Position numbers and translations under genes: made by a program
From: a bacterium
Lineage (GTDB): Bacteria; Patescibacteriota; Microgenomatia; UBA1400; UBA12108
Direction of reading: 5' to 3'
DNA length: 64,000 nucleotides
Assembly: GCA_043827085.1 (NCBI GenBank)
Contig: JBDRPO010000016.1
Span: 42,752 to 106,751 of the forward strand
Shown: positions 2,545 to 57,640 of the stretch, piece by piece
Layout: every line of letters starts with the position of its first letter
How positions within the stretch are numbered: position 1 is the first letter of the stretch
The notes under the pieces: model-generated
Seen by the model: only the letters and a program-made list of their open reading frames with translations
What the model was told of the DNA's origin: nothing
The model's database searches: none

Positions 2545-3372
2545 ATGTTAAAAGCCAAAAATCCTACTTCTGCCGGTGTTCGCCATCAAGTCGATTTTGA
2601 TCGTGGCTTGACCGCCAGTAGTCCCGAGAAATCCCTGACTGTCGCCAAAAAGCAAAACTCCGGGAGAAATAATCATGGCCACGTCACCACTCGTCATCGG
2701 GGCGGGGGAGAGAAACGCCGTTTGCGTCTCCTAGATTACAAACGCAACAAGCCAGGCATCGAAGCTCGTGTGGTTTCGATCGAATACGATCCCAATCGGA
2801 GTGCTAATATCGCTCTCCTCTATTACCGCGATGGTGAAAAACGCTACATTTTGGCTCCCGACGGCTTGACTGTGGACTCACTGATTGTTTCAGGTCCAGA
2901 TGCTGAACCCAAAGTCGGTAATTCCCTTCCCATGAAAAAAATCCCCATAGGGCTCCCCATCCACAATCTCGAACTTAAAGTAGGTCGTGGTGGCCAAATT
3001 GTTCGCTCTGCAGGCACTTTTTCCTTAATTCAATCCAAGGAAGGGGAATTTGTTACTGTCAAGCTCCCTTCAGGGGAAATAAGATTGCTTAAAGGTGAAT
3101 GTTTTGCTACAATCGGCCAGGTCTCTAATCTGGATCACAAGAACCGGAAAATAGGGAAAGCTGGGCGGAAACGCCACATGGGTTGGCGTCCAGCCGTTCG
3201 TGGTATCGCTCAGCACCCCGGGTCTCACCCCCACGGTGGTGGAGAGGGCAGGTCAGGCATCGGTATGCCAGGACCCAAGACTCCTTGGGGCAAACCCGCA
3301 CTTGGTAAAAAGACTAGAGGCCGCTACAAATACTCGAATAAATACATTATTAAAGGCAGGAGAGTGAAATAA
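2545..3372 (+). CDS. rplB: 50S ribosomal protein L2
   Basis: L2 motifs are present (GRNNHGHVTTRHRGGG, GGEGRSG). The start is taken at the ATG right after the rplW stop (MLKAKNPTSAG...). Confidence 0.95.
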   Translation: MLKAKNPTSAGVRHQVDFDRGLTASSPEKSLTVAKKQNSGRNNHGHVTTRHRGGGEKRRLRLLDYKRNKPGIEARVVSIEYDPNRSANIALLYYRDGEKRYILAPDGLTVDSLIVSGPDAEPKVGNSLPMKKIPIGLPIHNLELKVGRGGQIVRSAGTFSLIQSKEGEFVTVKLPSGEIRLLKGECFATIGQVSNLDHKNRKIGKAGRKRHMGWRPAVRGIAQHPGSHPHGGGEGRSGIGMPGPKTPWGKPALGKKTRGRYKYSNKYIIKGRRVK

Positions 3373-3657
3373 ATGAGCCGCAGCAGTGCCAAAGGACCAT
3401 ACGTCGACGCTAAACTTCTAGCGAAGGTTATGAAGGCTGGTATGTCTGGCACCAAAATGCCCATCAAGACATGGGCTCGTGCCTCAAGTATCCCCCCAGA
3501 GTTCGTTGGGCACACCTTCCTCGTCCACAACGGGCGGGTATTCAAAGAAGTTTTTGTTTCTGAAGGTATGGTAGGTCACAAACTGGGAGAATTCTCTCCG
3601 ACCCGCACCTTCCGTGGTCACGGCAAGATCGTTAAACGCACACTCACAAAGACCTAA
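3373..3657 (+). CDS. rpsS: 30S ribosomal protein S19
   Basis: [12 protein letters not shown]...HNGR...GHKLGEF is an S19 signature. Confidence 0.95.
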
Positions 3658-3661
3658 ACTT

Positions 3662-4006
3662 ATGAAAACTATTCAACGCTTTGTCCGCACCAGTCCCCGC
3701 AAACTCCGTCTTGTGGCCGATGCCGTCCGCAAACTTTCGCCCGGTGAAGCCCTCCTCCACCTAAAATTCACCGGCAAAGCCGCCGCTCTCCCCATGTACA
3801 AAGCTATTAAACAAGCGGTATCAAACGCCAAAGATCAAACAGGCCTCACCGTCGATAAACTTGCCTTTAAAACCCTCGACGTCATGGAGGGTCCCACCTA
3901 CAAACGTTTCCAAGCAGTGTCCCGTGGAATGGCCCATTCTATTATGAAGCGCACTAGTCATATTCGTGTTGAGCTGAAGGAGGTTAGCCGTGGGCCAAAA
4001 AGTTAA
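3662..4006 (+). CDS. rplV: 50S ribosomal protein L22
   Basis: L22-like sequence starting MKTIQRFVRTSPRKLRLVADAVR. The start is chosen at the ATG after the rpsS stop. Confidence 0.9.
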   Translation: MKTIQRFVRTSPRKLRLVADAVRKLSPGEALLHLKFTGKAAALPMYKAIKQAVSNAKDQTGLTVDKLAFKTLDVMEGPTYKRFQAVSRGMAHSIMKRTSHIRVELKEVSRGPKS

Positions 4007-6233: not shown

Positions 6234-6787
6234 CCGTCGATGCCAATCTAAAGACTCGTTTCGAAACCGACTATAGTCTCAAGCTCATGCAAGAGCTGGG
6301 ACTTAAAAACAAGTTGGCTACGCCTCGCCTGTCCAAAATCATTCTCAACGTCGGCATCTCCAAATCCGACAGCTCCACTAAAGACGTCGAAGTAGTAAAA
6401 GGTGAGCTTGCTGCTTTGTCTGGTCTCTCACCCAAAGTGGGAGGCGCCAAGCAATCTATCGCCGGTTTTAAGATTCGCGCTGGCGACCCCGTCGGTGTGT
6501 CCGTGACTCTTCGCGGGGTAAAAATGTTTGATTTCCTCGATAAATTGTGTAGAATAGTGCTTCCGCAAGTTAAAGATTTTCGCGGAGTCAAAAGTACCGC
6601 TTTTGATGGTCACGGCAACTACACACTCGGACTCTCGGAACAGATAATTTTCCCCGAGATCGATTACGGGAAGACCGAAAAAATTCATGGTTTGGAGATC
6701 GTGATCGTCACGACCGCCAAAAATAATGAGGACGCTTACGCCCTCTTGAAAATACTCGGAATGCCTTTTGAAAAGGCGGATAAATAA
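6230..6787 (+). CDS. rplE: 50S ribosomal protein L5
   Basis: L5-like sequence in the conserved position. It shares an ATGA overlap with rplX. Confidence 0.93.
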
Positions 6788-6788
6788 T

Positions 6789-6974
6789 ATGGCACGCAAA
6801 TCACTGGTCCTCAAAAGCCAGCTTAAACCAAAGTTCTCAACCCGCGCTCACAGCCGCTGTAAACTTTGTGGTCGCCCCAAAGCCTACATGCGCCATTTTG
6901 GGATGTGCCGTCTATGCTTTAGACAAGAAGCCCAAAAAGGCAACCTACCAGGAGTTACCAAAGCCAGTTGGTAA
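6789..6974 (+). CDS. rpsN: 30S ribosomal protein S14 type Z (zinc-binding, 61 aa)
   Basis: [10 protein letters not shown]...[22 protein letters not shown] has the CxxC...CxxC short-form S14 pattern. Confidence 0.9.
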
Positions 6975-6984
6975 GGATACTTAT

Positions 6985-7380
6985 ATGATTAACGACCACA
7001 TCTCCGACATGCTGACTCGCGTAAAAAATGCTTACGCCATGCACAAAAAAACCGTCTCCATGCCCTATACCAAAGTTATTGAATCTGTGGCTAAAGTCAT
7101 GGAAGATGAAAAGTACCTCTCCAAAGTCGAGGTGACTGGCGAAAAAGCAGCCGACAAAAAATTGGTTTTAACTCTCAGTTACAAATTGGATACCGCGGCA
7201 GTGAGTAGCGTCAAACGCATCTCCAAGCCAGGTGTCCGCATCTATCGTCCTCTCCACAGCTTCCGTCCTGTGCTCTCTGGTATGGGGATCGCGATTCTGA
7301 GTACTTCCAAAGGAATTATGTCTGACCGCCAAGCTAAAATTGCGGGTGTAGGAGGAGAAGTTCTCGCCGAACTTTGGTAA
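6985..7380 (+). CDS. rpsH: 30S ribosomal protein S8
   Basis: MINDHISDMLTRVKNAY is an S8 signature. The start is set at the internal ATG after rpsN. Confidence 0.93.
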   Translation: MINDHISDMLTRVKNAYAMHKKTVSMPYTKVIESVAKVMEDEKYLSKVEVTGEKAADKKLVLTLSYKLDTAAVSSVKRISKPGVRIYRPLHSFRPVLSGMGIAILSTSKGIMSDRQAKIAGVGGEVLAELW

Positions 7381-7384
7381 TCAT

Positions 7385-7933
7385 ATGTCAAAAATAGGTC
7401 GTCTACCCATCACCGTTCCTCCCACTGTTACCATCACGGTTAGCGGCAAAGTCGTCACGGTCAAAGGGCCAAAAGGTGAACTTTCCTTGAACATTCAACC
7501 CAAAATTAAACTTGAACAAACCGGCGATCAACTGGTCATTACCCGCGAGAGTGAAGATAAGCCAGTCCGCGCCCTTCATGGCATGACTCGCGCCTTGCTC
7601 TCCAATATGGTTAAAGGCGTGACCGATGGTTTCACCAAAAATCTCGAACTCGTTGGCACAGGGTATCGCGCACGTATGAACGGTAAAACCATTGTCCTTT
7701 CTCTCGGTTTCTCTCACGAAATCGAATTTGTTCCGCCTCAGGGTATCGAAATTAAAGTCGAGGGCACCAACGTTATCACGATCACAGGACGCGACATTCA
7801 AGCCGTCGGTCAAGTCGCCGCTGTCATCAGATCATACAGAAAACCCGAGCCCTACAAAGGTAAGGGTATCCGCTACGCCGGAGAAGTTGTGCGTAGGAAA
7901 GCCGGTAAAGCCGCCAAAGCCGCTGTCGCCTAA
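7385..7933 (+). CDS. rplF: 50S ribosomal protein L6
   Basis: L6-like two-domain sequence in the conserved position. Confidence 0.93.
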   Translation: MSKIGRLPITVPPTVTITVSGKVVTVKGPKGELSLNIQPKIKLEQTGDQLVITRESEDKPVRALHGMTRALLSNMVKGVTDGFTKNLELVGTGYRARMNGKTIVLSLGFSHEIEFVPPQGIEIKVEGTNVITITGRDIQAVGQVAAVIRSYRKPEPYKGKGIRYAGEVVRRKAGKAAKAAVA

Positions 7934-7945
7934 TAAATAATAAAT

Positions 7946-8290
7946 ATGAAAAAACTAGTATCTAAACAGTCACGCATCACTCGAGTCCGCGCCAGTCTCA
8001 AAAGTTCTGGTCGTCCCCGCCTTACCCTTTTCCGCTCTAACGAGCATCTTTGGGCTCAAATTATCGACGATGCATCCGGTAAAACTATAGTCTCCGTAAG
8101 CACCAAGACTATTACAAGTAAAAAAGGTGACACGAAAACTGTTCGCGCTGGCATAGTTGGCACAGAAATCGCGCGTCTTGCTCTCGCCAAAAAACTTAAA
8201 CAAATAGTATTCGATCGTGGCGCATATAAATATCATGGTCGTGTCAAAGCCGTAGCTGATGCGGCCCGTGCCGGCGGACTGGAGTTCTAA
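7946..8290 (+). CDS. rplR: 50S ribosomal protein L18
   Basis: L18-like sequence ([20 protein letters not shown]). Confidence 0.9.
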
Positions 8291-8291
8291 T

Positions 8292-8831
8292 ATGTACAAC
8301 AATAGATCACAAAACAAAGATCGCGCACCTCGCGCCCCACAGGAATTTGACGAAAAAGTCATCCGCATCTCTCGGGTAACCAAGAAAACCAAGGGTGGCA
8401 ACAACATTAGCTTTACTGCTCTAGTAGTCGTTGGTGACCACAAGGGTCGAGTTGGGGTCGCGCTCGGAAAAGCCAAAGACGTCATGAACGCCATTAAAAA
8501 AGGCGTCCGTCGTGGCAAAAAGACAGTAATCACAGTCCCCTTAGTCGAAAATCGTACTATCCCTCACGAACTCATGGTCAAGTTTGGTGCTGCCAAACTT
8601 ATCCTCAAGCCCGCCCCCGCCGGTACCGGCGTGATCGCGGGAGGCAGTGTTCGCGCCATTCTTGAGCTCGCCGGCATCAAAGACGTTGTCTCCAAGATCC
8701 TCGGCACCAACAACAAGATGAGCAATGTCACCGCAACCTTTGAGGCTCTCAAAATTATGAAAAAAACTGTCGCCATAAAATCTGCGCTCGGTCAAACCAA
8801 CACTAAAAAAACAGTTACCCAAAATCATTAA
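8292..8831 (+). CDS. rpsE: 30S ribosomal protein S5
   Basis: S5 dsRBD and C-terminal domain are present (RVTKKTKGGNNISFTALVVVGD). The start is at the ATG after the rplR stop. Confidence 0.93.
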   Translation: MYNNRSQNKDRAPRAPQEFDEKVIRISRVTKKTKGGNNISFTALVVVGDHKGRVGVALGKAKDVMNAIKKGVRRGKKTVITVPLVENRTIPHELMVKFGAAKLILKPAPAGTGVIAGGSVRAILELAGIKDVVSKILGTNNKMSNVTATFEALKIMKKTVAIKSALGQTNTKKTVTQNH

Positions 8832-8840
8832 ATAAAACCT

Positions 8841-9287
8841 ATGCAACTAAACTTACTCCCCAAACTATCCGCCCGCAAAAACAAGCGCCTCGGCCATGGC
8901 TATGGCTCGGGAAAAGGTGGACACACCAGTAGTCGCGGTCAAAAAGGACAAAAGTCCAGGAACCACGTCCGCTTATCATTTACCGGCTCCTCTTGGGTTT
9001 GGTTCAAGCGTTTACCCTTTATGCGAGGGAAAAGTCGTTTTAACTCATTTGGCAAGCGCGCCCTCATCAACCTCTCATCCCTCAATGTATTCCCCGCTGG
9101 TTCAGTCATTACAATGGAAAAGCTCATCGAAGCCAAAATTATCTCCAAAAATCAGGCCACCATCTCTAGGGTTAAAATTGTCGGTACGGGAGAACTCACC
9201 AAAAAACTCAAAGTCATGATTCCGGCGACGACTAGTGCCGTCAAAGCCATCATAGCCGCTAAAGGGGAGTACAGTGGACAAGATTAG
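8841..9287 (+). CDS. rplO: 50S ribosomal protein L15
   Basis: [24 protein letters not shown] is an L15 signature. It directly follows rpsE with no L30 gene between them. Confidence 0.92.
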
Positions 9288-45601: not shown

Positions 45602-46252
45602 TCATTGTACAGTATAAGTCAATAACTCCTCAAACAGGGGCTCGACATCTTCTTCGCTGATCTCATCTAAATCTACATTTGTTTGCCTTCTAACTTGCTC
45701 TTCCAATTTATACAAAAAGTCATACCACCCCATCTCTCGCCCATACCTCCTCTGTAAGTCCTCGATCCTCTTTTTTAGTGTAGTCACCCCAGTAGGCACC
45801 ACCCGCACATCACAATACGACAAAATCTTTCCCCCCCAACCTTGCTCCAGTAATTGCGCTGGGTTATCGCTCGCATACCCCGCATGTTCCCGTCCCATTA
45901 TCAGATTAGTGTCATCTTGCCCAAGCTCTGCGACGATCTTAGTCGTTGCTTCATGAGCATTAGTACCATATTTTTCTCTGTACTTTGCTTGTATTTTCTT
46001 CCAGTATTCTAAATTCTCAATTTGTATGATGTTTTTCCCCAAATCAAACTTCACAATATTTCCCATATCATGCAGGAGGAGTGACCGCATGACCAGATCT
46101 CGGTCGATTCCACCCTTCCATCCGTCAACAATTAACTTACCTACTCCCGCCACCCGCAGCATGTGTGTCGCCAACTGCGGCATAATATGATACTTGGCGT
46201 ACACATCTTGGATCGTCATACGTGTAGTATATAATGAATTCATGGCCACCAA
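45602..46252 (-). CDS. HD-domain phosphohydrolase
   Basis: H...LLHDMGN...D pattern of the HD superfamily. Confidence 0.65.
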   Translation of the reverse strand: MVAMNSLYTTRMTIQDVYAKYHIMPQLATHMLRVAGVGKLIVDGWKGGIDRDLVMRSLLLHDMGNIVKFDLGKNIIQIENLEYWKKIQAKYREKYGTNAHEATTKIVAELGQDDTNLIMGREHAGYASDNPAQLLEQGWGGKILSYCDVRVVPTGVTTLKKRIEDLQRRYGREMGWYDFLYKLEEQVRRQTNVDLDEISEEDVEPLFEELLTYTVQ

Positions 46253-46598
46253 ACACGTCCACTACAAGTCACCCTTTGCCGAGTACTTCAACTATCTAAG
46301 TCGGATTGATCGCGGCAAACGCTACTCAAATGAATACGGATCGATCCTCATCCTCTCGCTGGTCGAAGAAGTAGGGGAGGTGGCGCGGGCTTACCTCGCC
46401 GAGCACGGCCGGAAGCCTCTAAACCTCGCCGCCCAACACGACGAATCCTACGAGCAAGAGCTAGGGGATCTCATGGTCACAATCCTCCGCATCGCGCGGA
46501 TCAAGGATATCAACCTCAACGAGCGGATCCTGTATACTCTAAAGAAGATCGAAGCCAGAAAATTAAAACCCAAAGAATATAAGGAGCTAAAGTCATGA
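46245..46598 (+). CDS. MazG-like nucleotide pyrophosphohydrolase (small, all-alpha)
   Basis: EEVGEVARA...EELGDLM is the MazG EExxE...EELGD motif. The start is at the internal ATG, giving a short divergent overlap with the HD gene. Confidence 0.6.
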   Translation, partial: ATKHVHYKSPFAEYFNYLSRIDRGKRYSNEYGSILILSLVEEVGEVARAYLAEHGRKPLNLAAQHDESYEQELGDLMVTILRIARIKDINLNERILYTLKKIEARKLKPKEYKELKS

Positions 46599-47823: not shown

Positions 47824-47896
47824 TGCCGGGTCGCTAATGGTAAGCAGCGTGACTCTGAATCACGTAATCTAGGTCCGAATCCTAGCCCGGCAACCA
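47824..47896 (+). tRNA. tRNA-Gln (anticodon CUG) candidate with atypical features
   Basis: Cloverleaf by eye: acceptor UGCCGGG/CCCGGCA with U1-A72 as in bacterial tRNA-Gln, U8, D-loop with GG, and anticodon stem CGUGA/UCACG with loop CUCUGAA (U33, CUG, A37). The T-arm is CUAGG-UCCGAAU-CCUAG and CCA is encoded. Irregular points are C55 instead of U55 and a 3-bp D-stem with a 2-nt connector. Confidence 0.45.
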
Positions 47897-48008
47897 ACTA
47901 GTGCAACCCGAGAGGCCGTGACGCCTCAAACAGACTAATGAGTCCTACTAATTTGTCGAAATCTCCTCAAACTCCTGCAACCGCGAAAATCATCGGAAAC
48001 TTGAGGAA

Positions 48009-48341
48009 ATGCGATATACTCATATCATGTTTAACCAGAGTGTGTACTTTGAGGAAGCTAACGCCAAGAGGATATTTTGCTGCCTTGCCGAACCGGATAG
48101 CACCATCAAAAAGATTGTTATTATGTCGCACGGCTTTCGCGGATCCTCTATTGGTCCCGCCAGGCAGTTTGTTGATTTCGAGCAGGTACTCACCAAAAAT
48201 GGGTACTCGGTCCTCCGCTTTGACCAACCAAACTGTGGCAATTCTGAGGGTGACTTTCTCCAGTCTTCATTCAATGAATGGGTAGCCACCATTTCCCACC
48301 GAAGTGGCTGGAGATCCCGCAGGATGAGCAGGCATTTATGA
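48009..48341 (+). pseudogene. Truncated alpha/beta-hydrolase gene fragment (N-terminal ~95 aa only)
   Basis: IVIMSHGFRGSSIGPARQFVDFEQVLTKNGYSVLRFDQPNCGNSEGDF is the N-terminus of an alpha/beta hydrolase (e.g. dienelactone hydrolase or peptidase-like). The frame breaks before the nucleophile elbow, and the downstream 48278-48475 ORF is in another frame. Confidence 0.5.
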
Positions 48342-48488
48342 AATTTATGAAAGAGGTTGATACTCTTATTGCCGGTCCTATCCCGCTGGAGGGTGAAGCC
48401 TGCCAGTTCTGTAAATACCGGCATGTGAACGAACAGTATCAAGAGTCATCCGGCGAGAATAACTTGCCGTTTTAGAGGAACTTGACGG

Positions 48489-49046
48489 TCAAAGCTGGTT
48501 TGCCAGGTATTTTACCAAAACTTCAATCTTTCCATTATCATCAATCGAGAGCTTCATCACACTGCCAACTCGCTTTCTTGTTGAGTATGCTGCCCCTGGG
48601 TTAAGTATTAGCAAATTACCATACTTTTTAATAACGACTTCGTGAAAGTGTCCAAATACGCATACGTTTACTTTATTATGCAACTGATCTTTTAGCCTAG
48701 TTAGCTGCATATGTAAAGCTATGCTTTTTAGCTTGAATGCCTTGCTGATTAAATACTCAGCATATTGAATAGCTTTACGGCTTGTTTTATGCACCAGCAT
48801 AATCTTCAAGGGCCCAATCGTGAGATGCTCTACATCTCGTAAATTGTACTTCTCCCTATCGGACTGTTTGTTCCCCATAACCGCAACAACAGGAGCAATA
48901 TTCTCTAACTTTTTAAACTCTGACTTATCGCCGATGTCCCCAGCATGCAAAATCATCGAAACGTCGGAAAAGAAATTAATTATGTCGGGAGCTAACTTAT
49001 TACACTTGGTAAAATGAGTATCTGCAATTACCCCAATTATTTTCAT
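48489..49046 (-). CDS. YfcE/MJ0936-like metallophosphoesterase
   Basis: Calcineurin-fold motifs are present (IADTH, HAGDIGD, GN, GHFH). It is the last gene of the minus-strand operon. Confidence 0.8.
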   Translation of the reverse strand: MKIIGVIADTHFTKCNKLAPDIINFFSDVSMILHAGDIGDKSEFKKLENIAPVVAVMGNKQSDREKYNLRDVEHLTIGPLKIMLVHKTSRKAIQYAEYLISKAFKLKSIALHMQLTRLKDQLHNKVNVCVFGHFHEVVIKKYGNLLILNPGAAYSTRKRVGSVMKLSIDDNGKIEVLVKYLANQL

Positions 49047-50842
49047 TTAAGGTTGCTCGCGTTGCTCTCTAATTTATTCGCAATCTCAATCAACAAGTCG
49101 AAATCCTCAACTTTTCGAAATCTTGAGTCAACAACATTAAGACCGTTATAAGCTCCAATCAAAGCTCCAGTTATCCCTGCAATACCGTCAGTATTGCCAC
49201 CCCGAGCTTCAATTAGCTGTTTATCCCAAGATAAACCGGTCAATCTTTTCTTTTCTTCGACGGTATCCTGACGATAAGAATTGGCCGATAGTAGTATTGG
49301 TTTTGCGAATATACTCGGGTATGATAAAAAGTAAAATAATGCCAATGGCACTGTCTGCCAAACAGGGGAACCAGTACCATAAGTTACGGTAGCTCTCTTT
49401 ACATCGGTATCTCCTCTAATCGCCTGCTGAATATTTTTAACTAATATATTGACTCTTTTATTATCACTTCCATATTTAGTAATAATAAACTCTAAACTTT
49501 TTTGAGCCGAGGACTGTGGATTTTCGTTATTTTGTAAATAATGTATAAGTATGGCTATAAATACGTTCGCAGCTTTAGAAACTGAGGAATTATGTGTTAA
49601 GGACGCTTCCATCTCTGAATATTGCGCAATATCATTTATATCGTTGAAAAATAGTCCTATTGGAATAACTCGATATATCGATGAACAGGATTCTGTATTT
49701 GTAGATCCAGACTTATCAATTGCTACCCCCATACGTAATTTGTTGGCTGCAGATAGCGAAGTTGGTCCAGGCCATCTAGCATATTCTTTATCTTGACAAT
49801 CTTTGGCCCACTTTATAAGTGTATCCACTCTTGAGTCAACATTATACCCACCATCTTTAATAAGGTCTTTGGTTACATCAGTGAGCATCCTAGTGTTGTC
49901 TGTATAATACCCCGCGTTCAAGTGGCTAAAATATGGATGCTTAGCATTCGTTTGAAAGCCTTCGATACGACCCCTATTCATTGCAATAAATTCTTTACCC
50001 TCAATACCGGCAGCTGGGAATCCAAGTGAGTCTCCCACAGCAAATCCTACTAATGCCCCTCCAATTTTGTTTAATGGATCGTTATTGTGATACGACCTCT
50101 CCATTCTCTGCTCTAAGTGGAATAATAATGAAGCATCGCTGGTATATGCCCTCCCTACAAATAATTTTGACAACCACGGATACACACAAAACAATTTAAT
50201 TTCAGATTTAACATCGGCCTTTACCTGTAAATAGCAATCCATTAGAAATAAGGCAAAGGTAGCCTGGAGGCCTGTATCCACAAAGCAAATATTATCTTCC
50301 ATTCCAACTATTGCCCGTAATTCTCTAGTCATGGAAGTATGTAAGGCTCTAAGGTCACTATTAGACTCTAATATCATGCCAAGCTCTGTGGAGTAAGCCT
50401 GTATAAAGTCTTTCCAATTCTTAGCTTGTAGAGCTGCACTATTTACAACACTAAATAGCTTCAAATAATTCTCTTGAGATCCCAAATTTTTTCTAGACAA
50501 TGACATTTTTAGTACTCTCGTACTATCATTTCCGGGGTAGAAAACCTTTGCATCATTCAACAAAAACACATGCTTCTTCCCATCATTTAACAAGTCGTTT
50601 TTGAACTTTGTTATATGTTGATTTAGATTTTTTGCTTTTAGGGCAGATTGTCTTGGAATCTTTAGATTTAGTAACGTCTCTAATTTCTTTACGAATTTAG
50701 TCGGGTACTTATATGTCCATACGCTAAGAGCATCCTCGACTTTGGTAACATCAGTATCTACTTTGGCAATGCAAGCCCTAATCAGAGCCAGCATGTCTTG
50801 TGAATAAGTCAATAGTGTTTCAGTGTTTGGAGTTTTGTCCAT
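49043..50842 (-). CDS. Two-domain protein: unknown alpha-helical N-terminal domain (~270 aa) + ADP-ribosylglycohydrolase (ARH/DraG-like) domain with atypical metal-site residues
   Basis: ARH motifs are present: GALVGFAVGDSLGFP, GYYTDNTRM (canonical YTDDT) and GGNTDGIAGITGALIGAYNGL (canonical GGDTDT). Confidence 0.6.
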   Translation of the reverse strand: MDKTPNTETLLTYSQDMLALIRACIAKVDTDVTKVEDALSVWTYKYPTKFVKKLETLLNLKIPRQSALKAKNLNQHITKFKNDLLNDGKKHVFLLNDAKVFYPGNDSTRVLKMSLSRKNLGSQENYLKLFSVVNSAALQAKNWKDFIQAYSTELGMILESNSDLRALHTSMTRELRAIVGMEDNICFVDTGLQATFALFLMDCYLQVKADVKSEIKLFCVYPWLSKLFVGRAYTSDASLLFHLEQRMERSYHNNDPLNKIGGALVGFAVGDSLGFPAAGIEGKEFIAMNRGRIEGFQTNAKHPYFSHLNAGYYTDNTRMLTDVTKDLIKDGGYNVDSRVDTLIKWAKDCQDKEYARWPGPTSLSAANKLRMGVAIDKSGSTNTESCSSIYRVIPIGLFFNDINDIAQYSEMEASLTHNSSVSKAANVFIAILIHYLQNNENPQSSAQKSLEFIITKYGSDNKRVNILVKNIQQAIRGDTDVKRATVTYGTGSPVWQTVPLALFYFLSYPSIFAKPILLSANSYRQDTVEEKKRLTGLSWDKQLIEARGGNTDGIAGITGALIGAYNGLNVVDSRFRKVEDFDLLIEIANKLESNASNLK

Positions 50843-50845
50843 AAA

Positions 50846-52147
50846 TTACCTGTACGGAGGATCGGGATATTCTTCGACAGTTAAATGACCTGTGGTGGAA
50901 TCCCCGTCGCTAAAAATATAATATGAACTAGGAGGAAAGTAGCTATCGGGGTTTACCCCCAACTCTTCCATTACTTCTTTAAATATTCTCTTTACTATTC
51001 GTTGCAATACGTTTACCTGTGTAGGGTATAAACTTGCAAGAGCAATAATAATCTCTTCAAGCGAATGATATCCAATCCTATGGTCATAAAATGTACTGTA
51101 CTCTATCGGGATTGTATTTTGTGGGACACGGCCCCCCGCAATCTTAGATTCTTTTGGGTTATCTGCTGGTAGACCAATCTTCTTACGATACTCGGGATTA
51201 ACAGAAGCTGCCTGCAAATCTCGATATATAAATCTCGTAATTTGCCAGTCACTATCAAGTTCTATTAATGTATTTTGCGTGTGTGCTTCGAGTAAGATGC
51301 CGTATTTGAATGCAATAAACAACACGTTACTTATCATTGGTCTAGCGACTTTTTCTTCAAAAAATTTCTCCGGGGATAACCCAGAAAAATTAACCAACTG
51401 CTTAATAATTAGTGTATGTCCTGGGTTTCTAAAGTCTGGAGAATATAAACTAAACACAGGCATGAGATATTTACCCGATTGGTTGGTTGGGCTAGGATTT
51501 ACTAAGCGAAAAATGTTGCCGAAACTACTATCTAAGCAAGATGTTCCTAACGACATGGGTTCAGGCAAGTACCCGAATGTAGCCGGTAGATTATCAGTCT
51601 TCGAGATTTTTATAAATTCACCACTCATATAATGGCTTTGAATTGCAGACACTTCTGTCAATGCCCTGGGCAACCTGCCCAATTTTTTCCCTGATAAGTC
51701 CACCTTTATCATGTATGGCTTACCATCCAGAGACGTAATTAATGTTCTAGTAGATGATGTAGGACATGCTTTCACGTAGCCAGAGATTCTTTCTTTCGCA
51801 AATTCTCCAATTCCTCTCTCCGTGTACACGTCTACCATATCCGGATGTATGAAGAAGTGTACCTGCTTATTATCAAGTATTATGTTATTAAGTTCTGGTA
51901 CATCCTGAGTTTGATATAAATTCACAGCCTTTTTTGGAAGCGAAACATAGGGCAAATCAAACTCATCGTCTCCATCGAGAGGACGAAACTGTCTCGATAC
52001 TTCCGACCTATGTCTGTATGAATGGTAAGCTCCCTTATTAACATATCTTTCTGTATAAATCAAAAGCGACAATGGATCGTCAAAAGAAGTAATCCACTCT
52101 TCATTATGGCTCGGAGTATTGGGAGTTAGTATTGATTTGTTGCTCAT
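50846..52147 (-). CDS. Hypothetical protein, possibly kinase-like or IucA/IucC-like adenylating fold
   Basis: Motifs CPTSSTRTL, KPYMIKVDLSGKKLGRLPRALTEVS and EAHTQNTLIELDSDWQITRFIYRDLQ. The assignment is not secure. Confidence 0.4.
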   Translation of the reverse strand: MSNKSILTPNTPSHNEEWITSFDDPLSLLIYTERYVNKGAYHSYRHRSEVSRQFRPLDGDDEFDLPYVSLPKKAVNLYQTQDVPELNNIILDNKQVHFFIHPDMVDVYTERGIGEFAKERISGYVKACPTSSTRTLITSLDGKPYMIKVDLSGKKLGRLPRALTEVSAIQSHYMSGEFIKISKTDNLPATFGYLPEPMSLGTSCLDSSFGNIFRLVNPSPTNQSGKYLMPVFSLYSPDFRNPGHTLIIKQLVNFSGLSPEKFFEEKVARPMISNVLFIAFKYGILLEAHTQNTLIELDSDWQITRFIYRDLQAASVNPEYRKKIGLPADNPKESKIAGGRVPQNTIPIEYSTFYDHRIGYHSLEEIIIALASLYPTQVNVLQRIVKRIFKEVMEELGVNPDSYFPPSSYYIFSDGDSTTGHLTVEEYPDPPYR

Positions 52148-52150
52148 AAA

Positions 52151-53683
52151 TTAGTCATGGTTTTCTAGATTCTCCACTAACCAGTCGAACTTACGCCTAG
52201 TTGTGTCTGTGGCTCTGACAAGCGGTAGTTCTTTAAGCTTACCACTTAACTCACCCATTTCGTCTAGAATCGCAGTCCGATCACCCGGCTCAGAATTAGG
52301 ATTTATTCCTTTGTACTCAAGCTCTGCTTGAGAAAGAGTTTTATGTTCGCCCGTTTGACAGAAATCAGCCGAAAGATTGTAATACCTCCCTGATTGTCTA
52401 TTGTGTAAGAACAGATAGAACTTTTTTCGCCTGGTTGTACCTACATACTCCACAGGTTTTCCTAGTCGACTTTCTTGGATAGACTTAATCACCCCCAAAT
52501 CTCGAGAATCGTATGTTCGATTCACCTTAATCATTTCTTCAGGCCTACTCATAACTTGATCTTGACCGTTAGCACTAGTAGGGAGCATCTCCTTTTTCCC
52601 TTTAATCTTTATAAAGTATTTGGGTTTACGGGGATGTCTCACGATCACAAAAGCTTCTTCAAGGGTAGATCCAGCATCACGATATCCGTAGTTGTCAAAG
52701 TAATATGTCCAAAATGATACACTCTCCATACCAGGTACAAGCTCAACATCGCCAAACAATCCAGATTTACAATAAGAGGCGACAATTTCAAGAAAAGTAG
52801 ATGGATCTTGAGGGGTTAACTCAAACTTCTTTTCTAATTCTTCTCCCTCCAGTTCATCAGTCATTTCCCACCCCAATAGTGAATGGAGCGGTTCACTTTG
52901 ATCTTCAGAATGGTTGAGTTCCGCAGAAGTTTGTTTTGGCAGTAGCTTAACTGTTTCCCGGTATTGGGCTTCGACTTTGCCTTGCAATGTTCCGATTGGG
53001 ATTGCTCCTTCTTTCGTTAATTTTTCGATAATAGGTACCGTAAGTTGGTCTGTTTCGGGAGAGTACTTTACCTCACCTTTCATCATCCCCTCTGTTCCCA
53101 TAACCAATGCGCTATTAGGTTTGCCAGCAATAAAAGCGTAATAGTGTATGTTCTTGTCTAGCGTCAATCGTAACTGCAGATCACTTTCAATTGGATGAAA
53201 ATGGGATCGTTCATATACAATGCCCAATAATGGCTCCAGCGCTTCAAAATCAAACTCGGTAAACAACATTTTCAGCAACGCTGGATCAAACTCGGACTCT
53301 GTAGACGTTTGCAGATAATTTAGAAACCCCAGAGGGTTATTTAATATTCGCAACACTGTCTCATAAGTTGTGGTTAGTCGGTCCTTAGTCACTCTATCTT
53401 GTTGGTGACCTTTAATTTCCATATGTACAACGTCTTGATCTGCAATAGTGATTGCGCCTGGATTCAAATTCGACAAATATCTCCTTGTCCTCACCAAACC
53501 ACCTTGATTCAAGCTGACACCGTTACCAAAATAAATGTTTTCGGTAACTGGGAAGCATCCGCCATCCAGTAACAATGTTTGTTGCGTTAACTCTGGTAAA
53601 ACATCACCAATTCTTTCTCCGACCTCGTTTGGAATCAAAAATCTGATCTCTCTTCTACTGTTAAAAATGGTGTCTTCTTTCAC
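52151..53683 (-). CDS. Hypothetical protein with weak CYTH/VTC (triphosphate-tunnel)-like N-terminal domain and unknown C-terminal region
   Basis: Beta-strand motifs EIRFLIP, GLVRTRRY, MEIKG and LRLTLDKN are reminiscent of the TTM/VTC fold. The C-terminus has ...YNLSADF...SQAELEYKG. Low confidence. It is the first gene of the operon. Confidence 0.35.
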   Translation of the reverse strand: MKEDTIFNSRREIRFLIPNEVGERIGDVLPELTQQTLLLDGGCFPVTENIYFGNGVSLNQGGLVRTRRYLSNLNPGAITIADQDVVHMEIKGHQQDRVTKDRLTTTYETVLRILNNPLGFLNYLQTSTESEFDPALLKMLFTEFDFEALEPLLGIVYERSHFHPIESDLQLRLTLDKNIHYYAFIAGKPNSALVMGTEGMMKGEVKYSPETDQLTVPIIEKLTKEGAIPIGTLQGKVEAQYRETVKLLPKQTSAELNHSEDQSEPLHSLLGWEMTDELEGEELEKKFELTPQDPSTFLEIVASYCKSGLFGDVELVPGMESVSFWTYYFDNYGYRDAGSTLEEAFVIVRHPRKPKYFIKIKGKKEMLPTSANGQDQVMSRPEEMIKVNRTYDSRDLGVIKSIQESRLGKPVEYVGTTRRKKFYLFLHNRQSGRYYNLSADFCQTGEHKTLSQAELEYKGINPNSEPGDRTAILDEMGELSGKLKELPLVRATDTTRRKFDWLVENLENHD

Positions 53684-53961
53684 AATGATATATTGTAACC
53701 TATAGTCATCGCAAATACAACATCCACTATATCAAAGTATATCACCGCAAGTAAGCTATGTACCGTCCCATTTGTCTCAAATAGCCTGGAGAGTGAGACA
53801 CTACTAGTTGAGCTATAAGGATTGAAAGGTTCCAGACCTAGCTCCACAACATGCAAAATAAGACGGAATTATCCATCTTAATAAGTTCCTCACTTAAAAC
53901 CCAGAGCGTAAAGTCGTGGGAGTGTTATAAGTTAATGAGATTTTAAACTGGTTCTCCAAAT

Positions 53962-54174
53962 CTACCTCATCGCTTTGATGTGCATCACGATTCCGGCTAT
54001 GACAAACACCGCTCCCCATCGCACCGGGTGCGCTCCGGCGAGAGGGTAGGTGAGAAGAAATCCCGCGCCTATCCCCAGAAGCAAATGTGCGGTCGCGTTC
54101 TCTCCCGGGTGCTTGGCAAAGTACTTCACAGCTTTCTTACTTATCATTCTTACCTCCTTTGTACCTCTATCCAA
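53962..54174 (-). CDS. Small two-TM membrane protein (hypothetical)
   Basis: Hydrophobic 60-70 aa ORF (LLLGIGAGFLLTYPLAG...AVFVIAGIVMHI). No homology was recognised. Confidence 0.3.
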   Translation of the reverse strand: MDRGTKEVRMISKKAVKYFAKHPGENATAHLLLGIGAGFLLTYPLAGAHPVRWGAVFVIAGIVMHIKAMR

Positions 54175-54216: not shown

Positions 54217-54669
54217 ATGGTTAAAGGTATCGACTACATTGGTGTTTCAGCCGGAGCCATGATAATCAACGATCAAGGACAGATCTTTCTCGCCCAGCGC
54301 GGGCAAAAAGCCAATAATGAACGAGGCTGCTGGGAGAATCCCGGTGGCAGTGTAGAGTTTGGGGAAAAACTGGCAGACGCCGTCAAGCGTGAAATCATGG
54401 AAGAATATGGAGCCGAGATCGAAATCATCAAACAATTCCCCGCTGAAGATCATTTGATTCCGGCCGAGCATCAGCATTGGGTTGCAACCACTTTCCTCGC
54501 GAAATTCAAGAAGGGGAGTGAGCCCAAAATAATGGAGCCAGACAAATGCTCGGCCATCGGCTGGTTTGATTTGAGCGCGCTACCCTCTCCACTCTCCATC
54601 ATTACCGAGCTAGATATTAAGCATCATGGCAAAGATGTATCAAACTTAGTTACCGATTTCCCAGTATAA
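54217..54669 (+). CDS. NUDIX hydrolase
   Basis: Nudix box GGSVEFGEKLADAVKREIMEEYG. Confidence 0.8.
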   Translation: MVKGIDYIGVSAGAMIINDQGQIFLAQRGQKANNERGCWENPGGSVEFGEKLADAVKREIMEEYGAEIEIIKQFPAEDHLIPAEHQHWVATTFLAKFKKGSEPKIMEPDKCSAIGWFDLSALPSPLSIITELDIKHHGKDVSNLVTDFPV

Positions 54670-54676
54670 TCGAGCC

Positions 54677-55528
54677 ATGTCTTGGCAACTATTTACCGCC
54701 ATCGGCGTATTGCTATATTCCGTAAACGGTCTTCTCCATCGTGTTCTCATGAAAGATCAGCATTCGGATCCGTATGCCCAAACAATCATGTTTGCGGGAC
54801 TAGTGGGGATATTTGGTTGGTTTATCCTCTGCTTCCGCGACATCTCTCTCCCGCCACTTACTCCGAATAATATTATTCTTCTCACCACCATTTCTATCCT
54901 GTCAGCTATCGGTGGAGTCTTTGCCTTTAAAGGTTTCAAGTATATTGAGGCCTCAGAGCACACCATCCTCCTCACTTCTTCCAAACTCTGGTCATTGCTC
55001 GGCGCCGTACTAATTTTAGGAGAAACCTTAACTTTCAAAAAATTACTCGGAGGACTTATTATCATTTCTGGGGTTTTGATTGCCGAGTGGCGCAAACACA
55101 AATTTGTCTTCAACACAGGTGCACTTTATGTACTCATCGCTGCCGCAAGTTACGCGCTTGGGGAAATACTCTCCTTTTTTGTCCTGCGTGACTTTGATAG
55201 TACTTCCTTTCTTGTCTTGAATTGTCTGATCATGGTAGTACTCATGCTCATAGCTAAGCCCAAGATAATCCCCAAATTTGCTTTTTATTCTAAACCAAAA
55301 AACTTAATTAACATTTTAATTGTCTCTTTCAACGACACTTTCGCCACACTCGCTGTCTTTTTCGCCTATCAGCTCGGTCGCAACGCCCTCCAAATTGGCC
55401 CTCTTATGGCCACTCAAACCATCGTCACCGTAATTCTCGCCCACATTTTCCTTCGCGAACGCGACAATCTTTTGCAAAAGTTTATTGGCGCCTCACTTGC
55501 CGTTATAGGGGCGATCATCGTGTTATGA
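54677..55528 (+). CDS. EamA/DMT-family transporter (second paralog)
   Basis: Ten TM helices with two EamA-like halves. Confidence 0.7.
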   Translation: MSWQLFTAIGVLLYSVNGLLHRVLMKDQHSDPYAQTIMFAGLVGIFGWFILCFRDISLPPLTPNNIILLTTISILSAIGGVFAFKGFKYIEASEHTILLTSSKLWSLLGAVLILGETLTFKKLLGGLIIISGVLIAEWRKHKFVFNTGALYVLIAAASYALGEILSFFVLRDFDSTSFLVLNCLIMVVLMLIAKPKIIPKFAFYSKPKNLINILIVSFNDTFATLAVFFAYQLGRNALQIGPLMATQTIVTVILAHIFLRERDNLLQKFIGASLAVIGAIIVL

Positions 55529-55584: not shown

Positions 55585-56379
55585 ATGAATACAAAAAAAC
55601 TGTTGCTGCTAACGTTCCTAGTTATCTCTGTTTTTCTCTTTGCTCCCAAGCCATCAAAGGCCGTCGATTTCCAGGAAATATTTACCGCCGACGATTCATT
55701 CTTAGTTAGGCTTCAGGAAGAGCTTCAGTATTTTTTCGCCATTAAGTTAGAAAATAAAGTAGAAGTACTGGAGCAGCACGCAGAAAAACGCCTGACTATG
55801 GCTCAAGGTTACGCCGAGGCAGGTAATGGCGAAAAAGTCCAAAACCTCCTCCAAAATTATCTTCAGATTAAAGAAAAACAAAATAATTTACTGGGTAAAA
55901 CTGCGGGCGGGGAAGTATTAGGGGCAGTTGAAGAAAGAACCATCGAACAACAAAAAACCATGGAACAAATCAAGACAAAAATTGACGAAAATGGACAAGG
56001 GCAAGTCAGGCAAGTACAAGAACAAGTAGTCAATCAAGTCGCAGAGAGAATAGTCGTAGTCAATGGATCAGAGGGACAAAACGAATTCTTTCAAAAAGTT
56101 GAACACGTCTGGGCTCCAGGCACAGGTCCAGGAGGAACCGCCGGGGTAGTATACGAAGGAGGTTCCAAATTAATTTTTGCTCCAGGCACCTCAGCCGGAG
56201 GCAACGCAGGGTCCGACATCAAGACCGTAGAAGTCAAAACTGGTGGAGGTGAAGAGACTGGTTTACCCCCAGGAGTAACTGCCGGAGATGGCGACACAGC
56301 CCAAAATCATTATGCCCCAGGTACAACCGGTCCAGCAGATGGTAGTGGAGTCATGGATCCAGGTAAAATTGACAAGTAA
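55585..56379 (+). CDS. Secreted hypothetical protein with coiled-coil/Gln-rich region and APGT-type Gly/Pro repeats
   Basis: Signal peptide. Repeats APGTGPGGTAG / APGTSAGGNAG / APGTTGPADG. Confidence 0.45.
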   Translation: MNTKKLLLLTFLVISVFLFAPKPSKAVDFQEIFTADDSFLVRLQEELQYFFAIKLENKVEVLEQHAEKRLTMAQGYAEAGNGEKVQNLLQNYLQIKEKQNNLLGKTAGGEVLGAVEERTIEQQKTMEQIKTKIDENGQGQVRQVQEQVVNQVAERIVVVNGSEGQNEFFQKVEHVWAPGTGPGGTAGVVYEGGSKLIFAPGTSAGGNAGSDIKTVEVKTGGGEETGLPPGVTAGDGDTAQNHYAPGTTGPADGSGVMDPGKIDK

Positions 56380-57088: not shown

Positions 57089-57640
57089 TTAATTTTCTAG
57101 GTCAGTAGGCATCGGCTCGGGCGGGAGAAATTCATCACCACCGTCTTTGGGAACGTACTGCTCAGCTTTGAGCCACTCCACGTACGTGCAACCCGTTGCC
57201 TCTTTTTTCTCGCGGTCCCAGCCTGCGGTAGAACACTTTTTCATTTTTTTGCCACTAGCTGTTGTATATAAAACAAGCTTCTTCCCACACTCTGGACAAT
57301 TTTCATCCAGCTTTTCTGTCGTACCATTGATCCACTCTATATAGTCACACCCCTCGGCTTTCTTGGTCTCCGCGTTCCACACATTGGTCGAACACTTTTT
57401 CATCTTTTTGCCAAACCTGGTCACGTTCAAGACTAGTGGTTTTCCGCACTTGGGGCATTTCTCGTCTAATTCTTTTGGTTGTACTTCAAGCCACTTTACA
57501 TAATCACAACCTTCATTTTTGTGTGTTTCCGGATTCCACGAGCCTTTTGAGCAGCGCTGCAACTGGCGGCCAGTCTTAGTTTCAGTGACTGGAGATAACT
57601 CGGCTCCACACTTTGGACATTTATCTTCCATGATTGTCAT
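57089..57640 (-). CDS. Protein of three tandem topoisomerase-type C4 zinc ribbons (YrdD-like)
   Basis: The module CP(K/E)CG..L....G....KCS...W.......GCDY..W is present three times. Confidence 0.65.
   Translation of the reverse strand: MTIMEDKCPKCGAELSPVTETKTGRQLQRCSKGSWNPETHKNEGCDYVKWLEVQPKELDEKCPKCGKPLVLNVTRFGKKMKKCSTNVWNAETKKAEGCDYIEWINGTTEKLDENCPECGKKLVLYTTASGKKMKKCSTAGWDREKKEATGCTYVEWLKAEQYVPKDGGDEFLPPEPMPTDLEN

Follow-up and report, generated by a model that had tools for sequence, protein, structure and literature searches.

A cassette of four consecutive minus-strand genes (genes A to D, positions 48489-53683) was investigated in a 64,000-nucleotide stretch of bacterial DNA (GTDB lineage Bacteria; Patescibacteriota; Microgenomatia; UBA1400; UBA12108; NCBI GenBank assembly GCA_043827085.1, contig JBDRPO010000016.1, positions 42,752 to 106,751 of the forward strand); this whole stretch is called the window below. 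The cassette joins two modules that recur separately: module 1 pairs a tunnel protein (A) with a shortened ligase (B), and module 2 combines an X domain and an ADP-ribosylglycohydrolase (ARH) fold, fused in C, with a phosphoesterase (D). The unit is built from nucleotide and ribose-phosphate enzymes, in keeping with the nucleotide or ADP-ribose chemistry expected from an earlier reading of the letters alone (the original prediction). Tentatively, its products may act on a metabolite or a precursor of the envelope, by phosphoribosyl transfer driven by phosphoribosyl pyrophosphate (PRPP), by dephosphorylation and by ligation at the expense of ATP. The genes and their domains are as follows (PRTase, phosphoribosyltransferase; NIS, non-ribosomal-peptide-synthetase-independent siderophore).

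Gene A: 53683-52151, minus strand, 510 aa, GTG start; predicted tandem triphosphate-tunnel protein
A, N-terminal domain: residues 1-260, nt 53683-52904, minus strand; VTC-type
A, second domain: residues ~270-510, nt ~52870-52154, minus strand; CYTH-like at motif level
Gene B: 52147-50846, minus strand, 433 aa; predicted truncated NIS-synthetase-like (IucA/IucC) ATP-dependent adenylating ligase
Gene C: 50842-49043, minus strand, 599 aa; X domain fused to ARH-fold domain
C, N-terminal domain X: 50063..50842, minus strand, aa 1-260; predicted PRTase/CriT-like alpha/beta domain
C, ARH-fold domain: 49043..50062, minus strand, aa ~262-599; non-canonical metal site
Gene D: 49046-48489, minus strand, 185 aa; YfcE/MJ0936-type metallophosphoesterase

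Gene structure and base composition

The four minus-strand open reading frames (ORFs) of the original prediction were borne out exactly at their coordinates, and the same genes appear in the gene calls on the independent Logan assembly (run SRR26275510) and in the NCBI record of the metagenome-assembled genome (MAG). An overlap of 1-4 nt had been claimed for all of them; it holds for C/D only, where the start of D lies over the stop of C (4 nt, ATGA), and the junctions A/B and B/C are 3-nt gaps of the same sequence (TAAtttATG). The four genes and the ~280-nt leader form a low-GC islet with sharp bounds: their GC content is 0.374-0.412, while the window as a whole has 0.464 and the flanking genes have 0.44-0.54. 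No TM-like (transmembrane) segments were detected in any of the four proteins.

Gene B: shortened NIS ligase

B had been left between an atypical kinase and an IucA/IucC-type enzyme. The latter was upheld by NIS profiles and motifs, and the kinase was ruled out, the NIS-synthetase profiles alone giving matches. The Pfam FhuF/IucC C-terminal model matched B with E 7.6e-7 (30.2 bits; cut-off 25.2), and a 21-member profile of the B family matched the NIS synthetases of the PDB (7cbb, 3to3, 5jm7, 2w02; AsbB, IucA, AcsD, IucC) with E 1.5e-9 to 1.5e-5, the values for 7cbb, 3to3, 5jm7 and 2w02 reaching from 1.5e-9 to 7e-6. Residues ~80-390 of B were aligned with residues ~210-530 of the ~590-aa NIS synthetases; since the alignment begins at ~210, B is without the N-terminal ~200 residues (thumb end). 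No member of the family (n = 21) deviates at P129, S132-T133-R134-T135 (in the conserved stretch P-T-S-S-T-R-T), K148, H289, Q291, R309-D310 or R433, the last residue of the C-terminus; N292 is almost as strictly kept. The motifs S-T-R-T, H-x-Q-N and R-D align to their counterparts in 7cbb, AsbB and IucA; roles of the residues of the NIS nucleotide/Mg motifs have been described for DesD (PMC9356276). By homology B is an IucA/IucC (NIS)-type adenylating ligase, and it most likely catalyses ATP-dependent adenylation of a carboxylate followed by amide or ester formation.

Homologs of B are rare, a search of 5.8e9 proteins giving only 21. When 185,579 species genomes were scanned with a pattern, small NIS-like genes turned up at 46 loci spread over many phyla, the relatives including MAGs labelled Saccharibacteria, Patescibacteria and DPANN archaea; the close clade of B (at least 44% identity to B) consists mostly of MAGs labelled Saccharibacteria. 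Among the Woesearchaeota-labelled loci L006-L008 and L025 (about 6347-9173), a small NIS-like gene stands directly after genes for radical-SAM and metallo-beta-lactamase-fold proteins; in L009 (8001-10807) a small NIS-like homolog is followed by an SDR gene and a gene of the inositol-monophosphatase family. The mini-NIS family seems to be used in several unrelated small-molecule contexts.

Synthesis of a NIS-type siderophore or metallophore, in which B would join an amine to citrate or another acid and the product would be tailored by the remaining enzymes, is suggested by the place of B in the IucA/IucC superfamily. A plasmid search with B returned distant IucA/IucC genes only, in contexts unrelated to that of the cassette, the small ones on Methylocystis plasmids being annotated IucA/IucC and adjoining an MFS transporter gene, which also speaks for this explanation. 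It is nevertheless extremely improbable: B scored far under the cut-offs of the NCBIfam siderophore models (SbnC 16.6 bits vs 700, FslA 14.9 bits vs 1000) and is shortened as described above; among the genes called over 20 kb at the cassette, and at the nine A-B loci treated below, none encodes a precursor enzyme (decarboxylase, monooxygenase, acyltransferase), a siderophore exporter, a receptor or an uptake protein; and tunnel proteins, to one of which B is obligately coupled, are not known from siderophore clusters.

Gene A: predicted tandem tunnel protein

The VTC/CYTH-like assignment of A stands, with a different basis for each half. The Pfam VTC model matched residues 82-184 above its cut-off (E 1.7e-8, 34.7 bits; cut-off 23), a PDB search with a profile of the N-terminal half gave a weak match to Vtc3, and several orthologs are likewise annotated VTC in precomputed Pfam data. 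A word-index homolog search with A returned 2 proteins only; the full-length orthologs (33-39% identity) adjoin B orthologs, and both halves are conserved in them. Within the C-terminal half, E282-x-E284-x-K286 near the beginning and E454-x-E456-Y-K458 (with a following Gly, E-x-E-Y-K-G) near the end are invariant among orthologs and are separated by conserved alternating Arg/Lys/Glu strands, which is consistent with the CYTH/triphosphate-tunnel pattern. Pfam gave no match on nine orthologous C-terminal halves and the PDB profile search with this half gave none either; hhalign comparisons with the VTC half, and with CyaB and YgiF sequences, were insignificant, and single-sequence AlphaFold2 of A produced an unusable model (predicted local-distance score, pLDDT, 32). 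Thus A is described as a tandem tunnel protein with an established first half and a second half predicted from its motifs.

Gene C: X domain and ARH-fold domain

C had been described as a helical domain without known relatives fused to ARH. The ARH part was confirmed: Pfam ARH (PF03747) on residues 262-571, E 1.2e-38, 133.9 bits vs 26.2; alignment over model positions 1-284 of 287; nearest in PDB, MJ1187 (E 2e-13) and ARH3 (~1e-8). X, in contrast to the supposed helical domain, was modelled as a five-stranded alpha/beta core with helical bundles. Profile searches placed A, B, the ARH domain and D in families, whereas no Pfam model covers X.

A word-index search with X found no homologs; an exhaustive HMMER scan of 1.84 billion representatives gave 44 relatives, about half of them ~600-aa proteins and the rest ~250-aa stand-alone ones. 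ARH was present in 14 of the 16 longer X matches (at least 389 aa) scanned, and the stand-alone X genes with readable DNA are directly followed by a separate ARH gene (L059, L062-L064), with the single exception of a 1-kb contig on which stand-alone X precedes a gene starting with a HAD-type DVDGVL motif. Owing to the fusion in most long proteins and the adjacency of stand-alone X to ARH, X and a distinct ARH clade are regarded as an obligate pair, fused or adjacent. A plasmid search with X gave no match.

AlphaFold with a 22-sequence alignment gave a confident model of X (pLDDT 92; predicted TM-score, pTM, 0.90), in which four helices form an N-terminal bundle and three more are inserted into an alpha/beta core of five strands. 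D97, D189, the loop V-D-T-G-x-Q-x-T, R117 and E244 are invariant; in the model D97 follows the strand 90-94, and the loop h-h-V-D-T-G-x-Q-x-T follows the strand 185-189. The classical PRPP motif DD...TTGxT is absent, and the two Asp, a candidate acidic pair, stand after different strands. The published account of CriT gives a PRTase-like core of five strands that is preceded and interrupted by helical bundles, and a DD motif split over two loops (PMC10299916). Since the layout of the model fits this description, X is assigned with moderate confidence to the PRTase/CriT-like fold, with the caveat that a Foldseek search with the model, as proposed along with the original prediction, gave no significant match in PDB or BFVD.

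The ARH site of C reads GDSLGFPAAG (no Glu) instead of GDALGxPxE (clade form GDALGFPxAG), T-D-N-T instead of S/T-D-D-T (clade form T-x-N-T) and GGNTDG instead of GGDTDT. These replacements of metal ligands are kept across the 14 X-linked ARH proteins, and the TH motif is retained; by these residues, the substrate and mechanism of the X-linked clade probably differ from those of canonical ARH.

Gene D: phosphoesterase

D is YfcE-like, as had been predicted (TIGR00040, 73.3 bits vs cut-off 56.25; Metallophos_2, E 3.6e-24; nearest in PDB, MJ0936, E 1e-6). Its metal motifs D9-x-H11, G36-D37, G58-N59 and G132-H133-x-H135 are intact, and it carries an insert of ~35 residues.

Module 1: genes A and B

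A adjoins B in 9 of 9 independent close-clade loci where the neighbouring gene is visible, with spacers of 2-18 nt; the order in those loci is B then A, which is inverted in the window. The tunnel protein accompanies the close clade of B only, not the distant NIS-like genes. In locus L013 the partner of B is the C-terminal CYTH-like half only (264 aa; 2551-3345, plus strand), so that the VTC half of A appears to be dispensable. The 3' end of this CYTH-like gene is overlapped by 14 nt by a convergent YfcE gene (3332-3880, minus strand), the product of which has 41% identity to D over its full length and the same ~35-aa insert. L013 is a low-GC MAG contig with a ribosomal-protein setting (L10, L7/L12, L1, L11, NusG); its label 'uncultured Gammaproteobacteria' looks doubtful. 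Clustering of neighbours in the eight B-A loci other than L013 gave the following.

Small mannose-6-phosphate-isomerase-like cupin: 8/8 loci
WbsX-type glycosyltransferase: 6/8 loci
NUDIX: 3/8 loci (L001, L003, L066)
UppS overlapping the start of B: 3/8 loci

Small Zn-phospholipase-C-like proteins are also encoded near B-A loci. None of the cupin, WbsX, UppS and Zn-phospholipase-C-like genes was found in the window, and the NUDIX proteins of the other loci resemble that of the window at E 2e-4 only. The UppS genes (Pfam Prenyltransf) overlap the start of the B ortholog in L005 (7106-8011), L065 (6065-6880) and L045 (7096-7923), all of one sub-lineage; upstream of them, on the other strand, stand WbsX glycosyltransferase and small Zn-phospholipase-C-like genes. 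The UppS/WbsX context hints at a link of the B-A pair to the synthesis of lipid-linked glycans of the envelope. Within a few kb of B-A, genes were also seen for a TraG/VirD4-like ATPase and a serine resolvase (L010, 1-6396), for a phage-type integrase (L065, 954-1640) and for ParB-fused N6/N4 DNA methyltransferases (L066, 6700-8710).

A polyphosphate system of VTC/CotH type, with A polymerising or hydrolysing polyphosphate and the others as accessories, would account for the Pfam VTC domain, and VTC-CotH-DUF4956 neighbourhoods are mentioned in the literature. The likeness to CotH-kinase/VTC neighbourhoods that had been noted was not borne out: no locus holds a CotH or DUF4956 gene, and SPX, CHAD, PPK and PPX are likewise absent from the gene tables of the nine A-B loci. 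With the VTC half dispensable in L013 and an adenylating ligase as the invariant partner of A, such a system can hardly be the explanation.

Module 2: genes C and D

In the closest homolog of C (P0027, on a contig of JGI 3300071358, 48% identity), a Metallophos_2 gene comes next with the same 4-nt overlap; 8 nt upstream of P0027 lies a gene of at least 429 aa that could not be read. A phosphatase recurs near X, namely YfcE in the window and on the P0027 contig and the HAD-type gene after stand-alone X. Other X+ARH loci have NUDIX, RpiB and an APH-type kinase nearby (L062, Pfam) or a SLOG/LOG-like and a PfkB-like gene (L060 and L061); in L059 a 189-aa neighbour looks NDT/SLOG-like (nucleoside-2-deoxyribosyltransferase), by eye only. 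The 620-aa gene of L060 encodes an efflux adaptor, and hhalign found no relationship of the 310-aa gene of L060 or of the L062 kinase to the A and B profiles.

These neighbours raise the alternative that the cassette salvages nucleotides or ribose phosphates for an organism of reduced biosynthetic capacity. In it, the ARH-like domain would be a ribosyl N-/O-glycosidase acting on a nucleotide or an ADP-ribose-like compound, X would re-attach a base to PRPP, D and NUDIX would trim phosphates, A would hydrolyse tri- or polyphosphate, and B would re-amidate or ligate a carboxylated base or nucleotide in a NadE-like manner; a special case would be the NARP1-like rebuilding of a dinucleotide from ADP-ribose. 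Besides the NUDIX, RpiB, PfkB-like, SLOG/LOG-like and APH-family genes and the 189-aa NDT/SLOG-like neighbour, HD and MazG nucleotide hydrolase genes lie 2 kb away in the window, and the labels of the relatives' MAGs (Saccharibacteria, Patescibacteria and DPANN archaea) are those of lineages that depend on salvage. A precedent is NARP1, in which PRPS-like and PRTase-type enzymes are reported to work on ADP-ribose pyrophosphate (ADPR-PP). Salvage genes are usually widespread, yet the B family is extremely rare and the cassette an acquired islet; no characterised salvage route has a NIS-type ligase or a tandem tunnel protein, the cupin, WbsX and UppS partners of B-A point to sugars and the envelope rather than to bases, and the islet holds no nucleoside or base transporter. 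Salvage is considered unlikely without being negligible.

Union of the two modules

The pairs A-B, X-ARH and C-D are conserved in the neighbourhoods of homologs, and the full set of four genes was found in the window only; a single ancestral four-gene unit is ruled out, the cassette being a fusion of two separately recurring modules. A phosphoesterase and NUDIX are accessories common to both.

Packing of four unrelated genes by genome streamlining would agree with the single occurrence of the full set and with the general density of small genomes. It would leave unexplained the deviant GC content, uniform over exactly these genes, the identical TAAtttATG at A/B and B/C with the ATGA overlap at C/D, and the recurrence of the A-B, X-ARH and C-D pairs and of the B-CYTH-YfcE arrangement; it is held to be very improbable. 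Because of the uniform low GC content, the adjacency of A and B in 9/9 loci, the recurring C-D overlap and the D ortholog at the B-CYTH locus, the grouping is taken to be more than chance. The tightly coupled unit of unknown function in the original prediction is in this sense supported by spacing, base composition and recurring pairs.

Proposed function

A sugar- or ribose-containing metabolite or an envelope precursor would be the most coherent class of substrate, given the sugar and envelope genes near B-A elsewhere and the precedent of the C. jejuni HS:2 capsule, in which PRPP-derived ribose occurs together with amidated glucuronate (PMC12096443). The two modules would act on one ribose-phosphate-containing substrate within a cytoplasmic, self-contained cassette. 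C and D would work like the PRPP-dependent ribofuranosyl-transfer pair CriT-CrpP: PRPP or a similar compound would donate 5-phosphoribose, which X would transfer to an acceptor with release of pyrophosphate (PPi), and D would then remove or cleave the phosphate. The ARH-like domain may bind the ribosyl linkage and hydrolyse, edit or reverse it, or may hold the acceptor. B would adenylate a carboxylate with ATP and couple it to an amine or hydroxyl group on the same substrate or one related to it, the missing N-terminal (thumb) region possibly opening the pocket for a bulky acceptor. A would handle the phosphoanhydride side, either by clearing PPi or triphosphate (PPPi) or as a source of (poly)phosphoryl groups. 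Without recourse to NAD+, the cassette would in the end yield a small molecule or a precursor of the cell envelope that is both ribosylated and acylated. Substrates, order of steps and end product are proposals here, as would be complexes of A with B or of C with D; they start from what was shown: how the genes are arranged, to which folds and families they were assigned, which residues of catalytic type are conserved, which pairs recur together, and the signs that the cassette was acquired horizontally.

This PRPP-driven scheme is regarded as possible rather than probable. The recurrence of a phosphatase partner and the ribose-phosphate and sugar themes among the neighbours count for it. Several points weigh against it. 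The full set stands at a single locus; X+ARH and the cupin/WbsX/UppS set never occurred together in the loci examined, and glycosyltransferase and exporter genes are absent from the window, so that the two modules may not share a substrate. Further, the CYTH assignment of the C-terminal half of A is by motif only, the role given to the tunnel protein is generic and leaves its obligate pairing with the ligase unexplained, and the role of the ARH-like domain is ad hoc.

A bolder form, a NAD+-independent ribosyl-conjugation cycle, would comprise a CriT/PRTase-like writer, an ARH-like eraser or editor, YfcE for the conversion of phosphoribosyl to ribosyl, and the NIS ligase and tunnel pair. The donor for X would be PRPP or ADPR-PP-like, and the target a metabolite, an envelope polymer or a macromolecule; the NIS-tunnel pair would add an acyl, aminoacyl or nucleotidyl group and control the pyrophosphate/triphosphate economy. 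This cycle is thought rather improbable.

Surroundings of the islet

The features around the cassette are listed below.

Leader upstream of A: 53684..53961, minus strand; ~280 nt, GC 0.374
55-codon leader ORF: 53847-53680, minus strand; its TGA overlaps the GTG start of A (GTGA); Logan annotation call and direct reading
70-aa ORF upstream of leader: 53962-54174, minus strand; looks like a membrane protein
NUDIX: 54217-54669, plus strand; 150 aa, Pfam E 2e-17, GC 0.48, 534 nt upstream of the operon
EamA transporter: 54677-55528, plus strand; Pfam E 8e-25, GC 0.44
tRNA-Gln(CTG): 47824-47896, plus strand; ARAGORN and Rfam; islet flank

The 55-codon ORF could be a leader peptide or spurious. A terminator-like hairpin (53880-53859, minus strand) lies downstream of the 70-aa ORF. 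The leader had no match in Rfam and its fold is ordinary (z -0.85), which speaks against a riboswitch; promoter and terminator scans showed no excess over shuffled expectation.

The NUDIX gene was placed correctly at about 0.5 kb in the original prediction, but it is divergent, has host-like GC content and lies outside the islet; with EamA it belongs to the host backbone, and both are possible functional neighbours of the cassette. No Pfam match to any DNA-binding domain was found in the window NUDIX. The HD-domain hydrolase gene (45602-46252, minus strand) and the MazG-type nucleotide pyrophosphohydrolase gene (46194-46598, plus strand), ~2 kb from the cassette, have host-like GC content; they are divergent and their ORFs overlap at the 5' ends. 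Further away, a 183-aa protein (57089-57640, minus strand) has three repeats of a topoisomerase-type C4 zinc ribbon, and a DUF5667 protein (55585-56379, plus strand) has a Gly/Pro/Thr-rich C-terminal region; a DUF5666 gene is also near on the source contig, and DUF5666/DUF5667 genes flank the operon. With relatives labelled Saccharibacteria or Patescibacteria, these flanking genes make the CPR setting of the original prediction plausible.

Between D and tRNA-Gln lies ~0.6 kb of host-GC sequence holding gene fragments only. This gap (47897-48488) contains a 110-codon ORF (48009-48341, plus strand) with weak alpha/beta-hydrolase N-terminal matches and a 65-codon Cys-containing ORF (48278-48475, plus strand); the Logan annotation has a 134-aa minus-strand ORF there instead. 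The operon-bearing Logan contig stops at about window position 47891, within tRNA-Gln, which suggests that the junction is variable in the population. The tRNA gene is a possible integration landmark; a search for att-like direct repeats around the islet gave none that was convincing. On account of the uniform low GC content, the sharp bounds and the nearby tRNA-Gln, the islet is read as a horizontally acquired cassette.

Defence and virus searches

The sole match in PADLOC-DB v2 was that of D to PDC-S10, a marginal one (E 0.005, 14 bits), and PHROGs gave generic ARH and phosphoesterase matches only; a known defence system was rejected on these results. Three IMG/VR scans with the A, B and C profiles found no viral relatives, and together with the negative BFVD fold search of the X model they tell against phage origin. 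The earlier remark that the set matches no described defence, toxin or modification system thus agrees with PADLOC, the viral scans and the literature.

An ADP-ribose-centred conflict or repair system, akin to the computationally predicted anti-ADP-ribosylation systems centred on ADP-ribosylglycohydrolase (ARG), is a further alternative and is also deemed unlikely without being negligible. The ARH-like domain would clear away adducts or signals of ADP-ribosyl (or a related group) that an invader has made, the released ADP-ribose would be broken down by D and, in trans, by NUDIX, X would bind a nucleotide or ribose-phosphate ligand, and A and B would make or destroy a nucleotide-derived signal. 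ARG, a phosphatase (calcineurin-like included) and Nudix form the core of the ARG-centric systems (PMC9503650, section 3.8), and in the window C and D are translationally coupled in a conserved pairing. The islet is rare, patchy, horizontally acquired and beside a tRNA gene; some B-A loci are near an integrase, a resolvase/TraG or a ParB-methylase, and accessory genes vary around a conserved core. The negative PADLOC result (apart from the marginal D) and the lack of viral homologs of A, B and C in the IMG/VR pattern scans tell against a conflict role, as does the absence from the cassette of a sensor, transcription factor, chaperone or effector, the 150-aa NUDIX of the window lying outside the islet. 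The X-linked ARH clade has lost most canonical metal ligands, the neighbours of X+ARH are metabolic (RpiB, PfkB, kinase) and those of B-A are envelope or sugar genes.

Significance

As the cassette matches no described pathway or defence system, its chemistry is probably new. Each enzyme belongs to a known superfamily, and the novelty lies at the level of gene partnerships, since every known system considered fails at least one defining feature. In the libraries and literature searched, no truncated NIS ligase was found as an obligate pair with a (tandem) tunnel protein, nor was the X family, its obligate pairing with a non-canonical ARH, or the union of all these in one mobile cassette. The literature search gave no paper linking IucC-type enzymes with CYTH/VTC, none on ARH in Patescibacteria and none on truncated non-siderophore NIS enzymes.

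NIS synthetases are known almost only from siderophore pathways. If the assignments are true, a truncated NIS clade with a tandem tunnel protein in reduced-genome bacteria would mean a different use of NIS chemistry, and the NIS ligase would be a new partner class for tunnel enzymes. The X-ARH pairing would suggest ribosyl transfer and hydrolysis not starting from NAD+, of relevance to the biology of ADP-ribosylation and to PRPP-dependent ribosylation of glycans. The ribosyl-conjugation cycle, if true, would define two partnerships of enzymes not known before, as well as a new way of making ribosylated products. These findings would be surprising for enzymologists of NIS synthetases, of tunnel enzymes and of ADP-ribosylation. 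As the cassette is 5.2 kb long, self-contained, horizontally mobile and codes for soluble proteins only, it can be readily cloned, expressed and screened.

Comparison with known systems

NIS synthetases (IucA/IucC, AcsD, AsbB, DesD): B shares the finger/palm core and the nucleotide/Mg motifs. The known enzymes have ~580-650 aa in a thumb-finger-palm arrangement, whereas B has 433 aa, the N-terminal ~200 residues being absent; siderophore genes are missing from its surroundings, the tandem tunnel protein is its obligate neighbour, and its strictly conserved C-terminal PPYR tail has no known counterpart.

Tunnel metalloenzymes (Vtc4, CYTH phosphatases and cyclases): the alternating acidic/basic strand motifs are shared by both halves of A. 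A differs from them in having two tunnel-type domains (the second one predicted), in being soluble, in having no SPX, TM, CHAD, CotH or DUF4956 partner and in being always paired with a NIS-like ligase; its C-terminal domain was matched by no profile or PDB search.

ARG-centric systems (PMC9503650): the likeness consists in an ARH/ARG coupled to a phosphatase, a Nudix nearby and patchy, variable neighbourhoods. Transcription factors of Nudix or WYL type, a chaperone, an ARPP domain and an effector are all absent from the window, and its ARH site is non-canonical; the ARG-centric systems, for their part, have no PRTase-like partner domain and no ligase/tunnel pair.

ARH3, DraG and MJ1187: C shares the whole ARH fold and the TH motif, but has lost the Glu of GDALGxPxE, DD having become xN and D-T-D-T having become N-T-D-G.

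NARP1 (phage; Adps and Namat): there is no sequence relationship (Adps is PRPS-like) and no counterpart of B. In NARP1 an enzyme forming a pyrophosphoryl donor is combined with a PRTase-type enzyme on an ADP-ribose-derived PRPP analogue; a PRTase-like domain joined to an ARH-like one that binds ADPR could fit such a logic.

CriT-CrpP (H. influenzae Bcs3, 8a0c) and T. composti 7shg: the X model appears to share the PRTase-like core, the helical bundle and the insert. CriT has two acidic residues, D680/E818, and the model of X has two invariant acidic residues after separate strands; the X-bearing gene likewise directly precedes a phosphoesterase (YfcE) or HAD-type gene.

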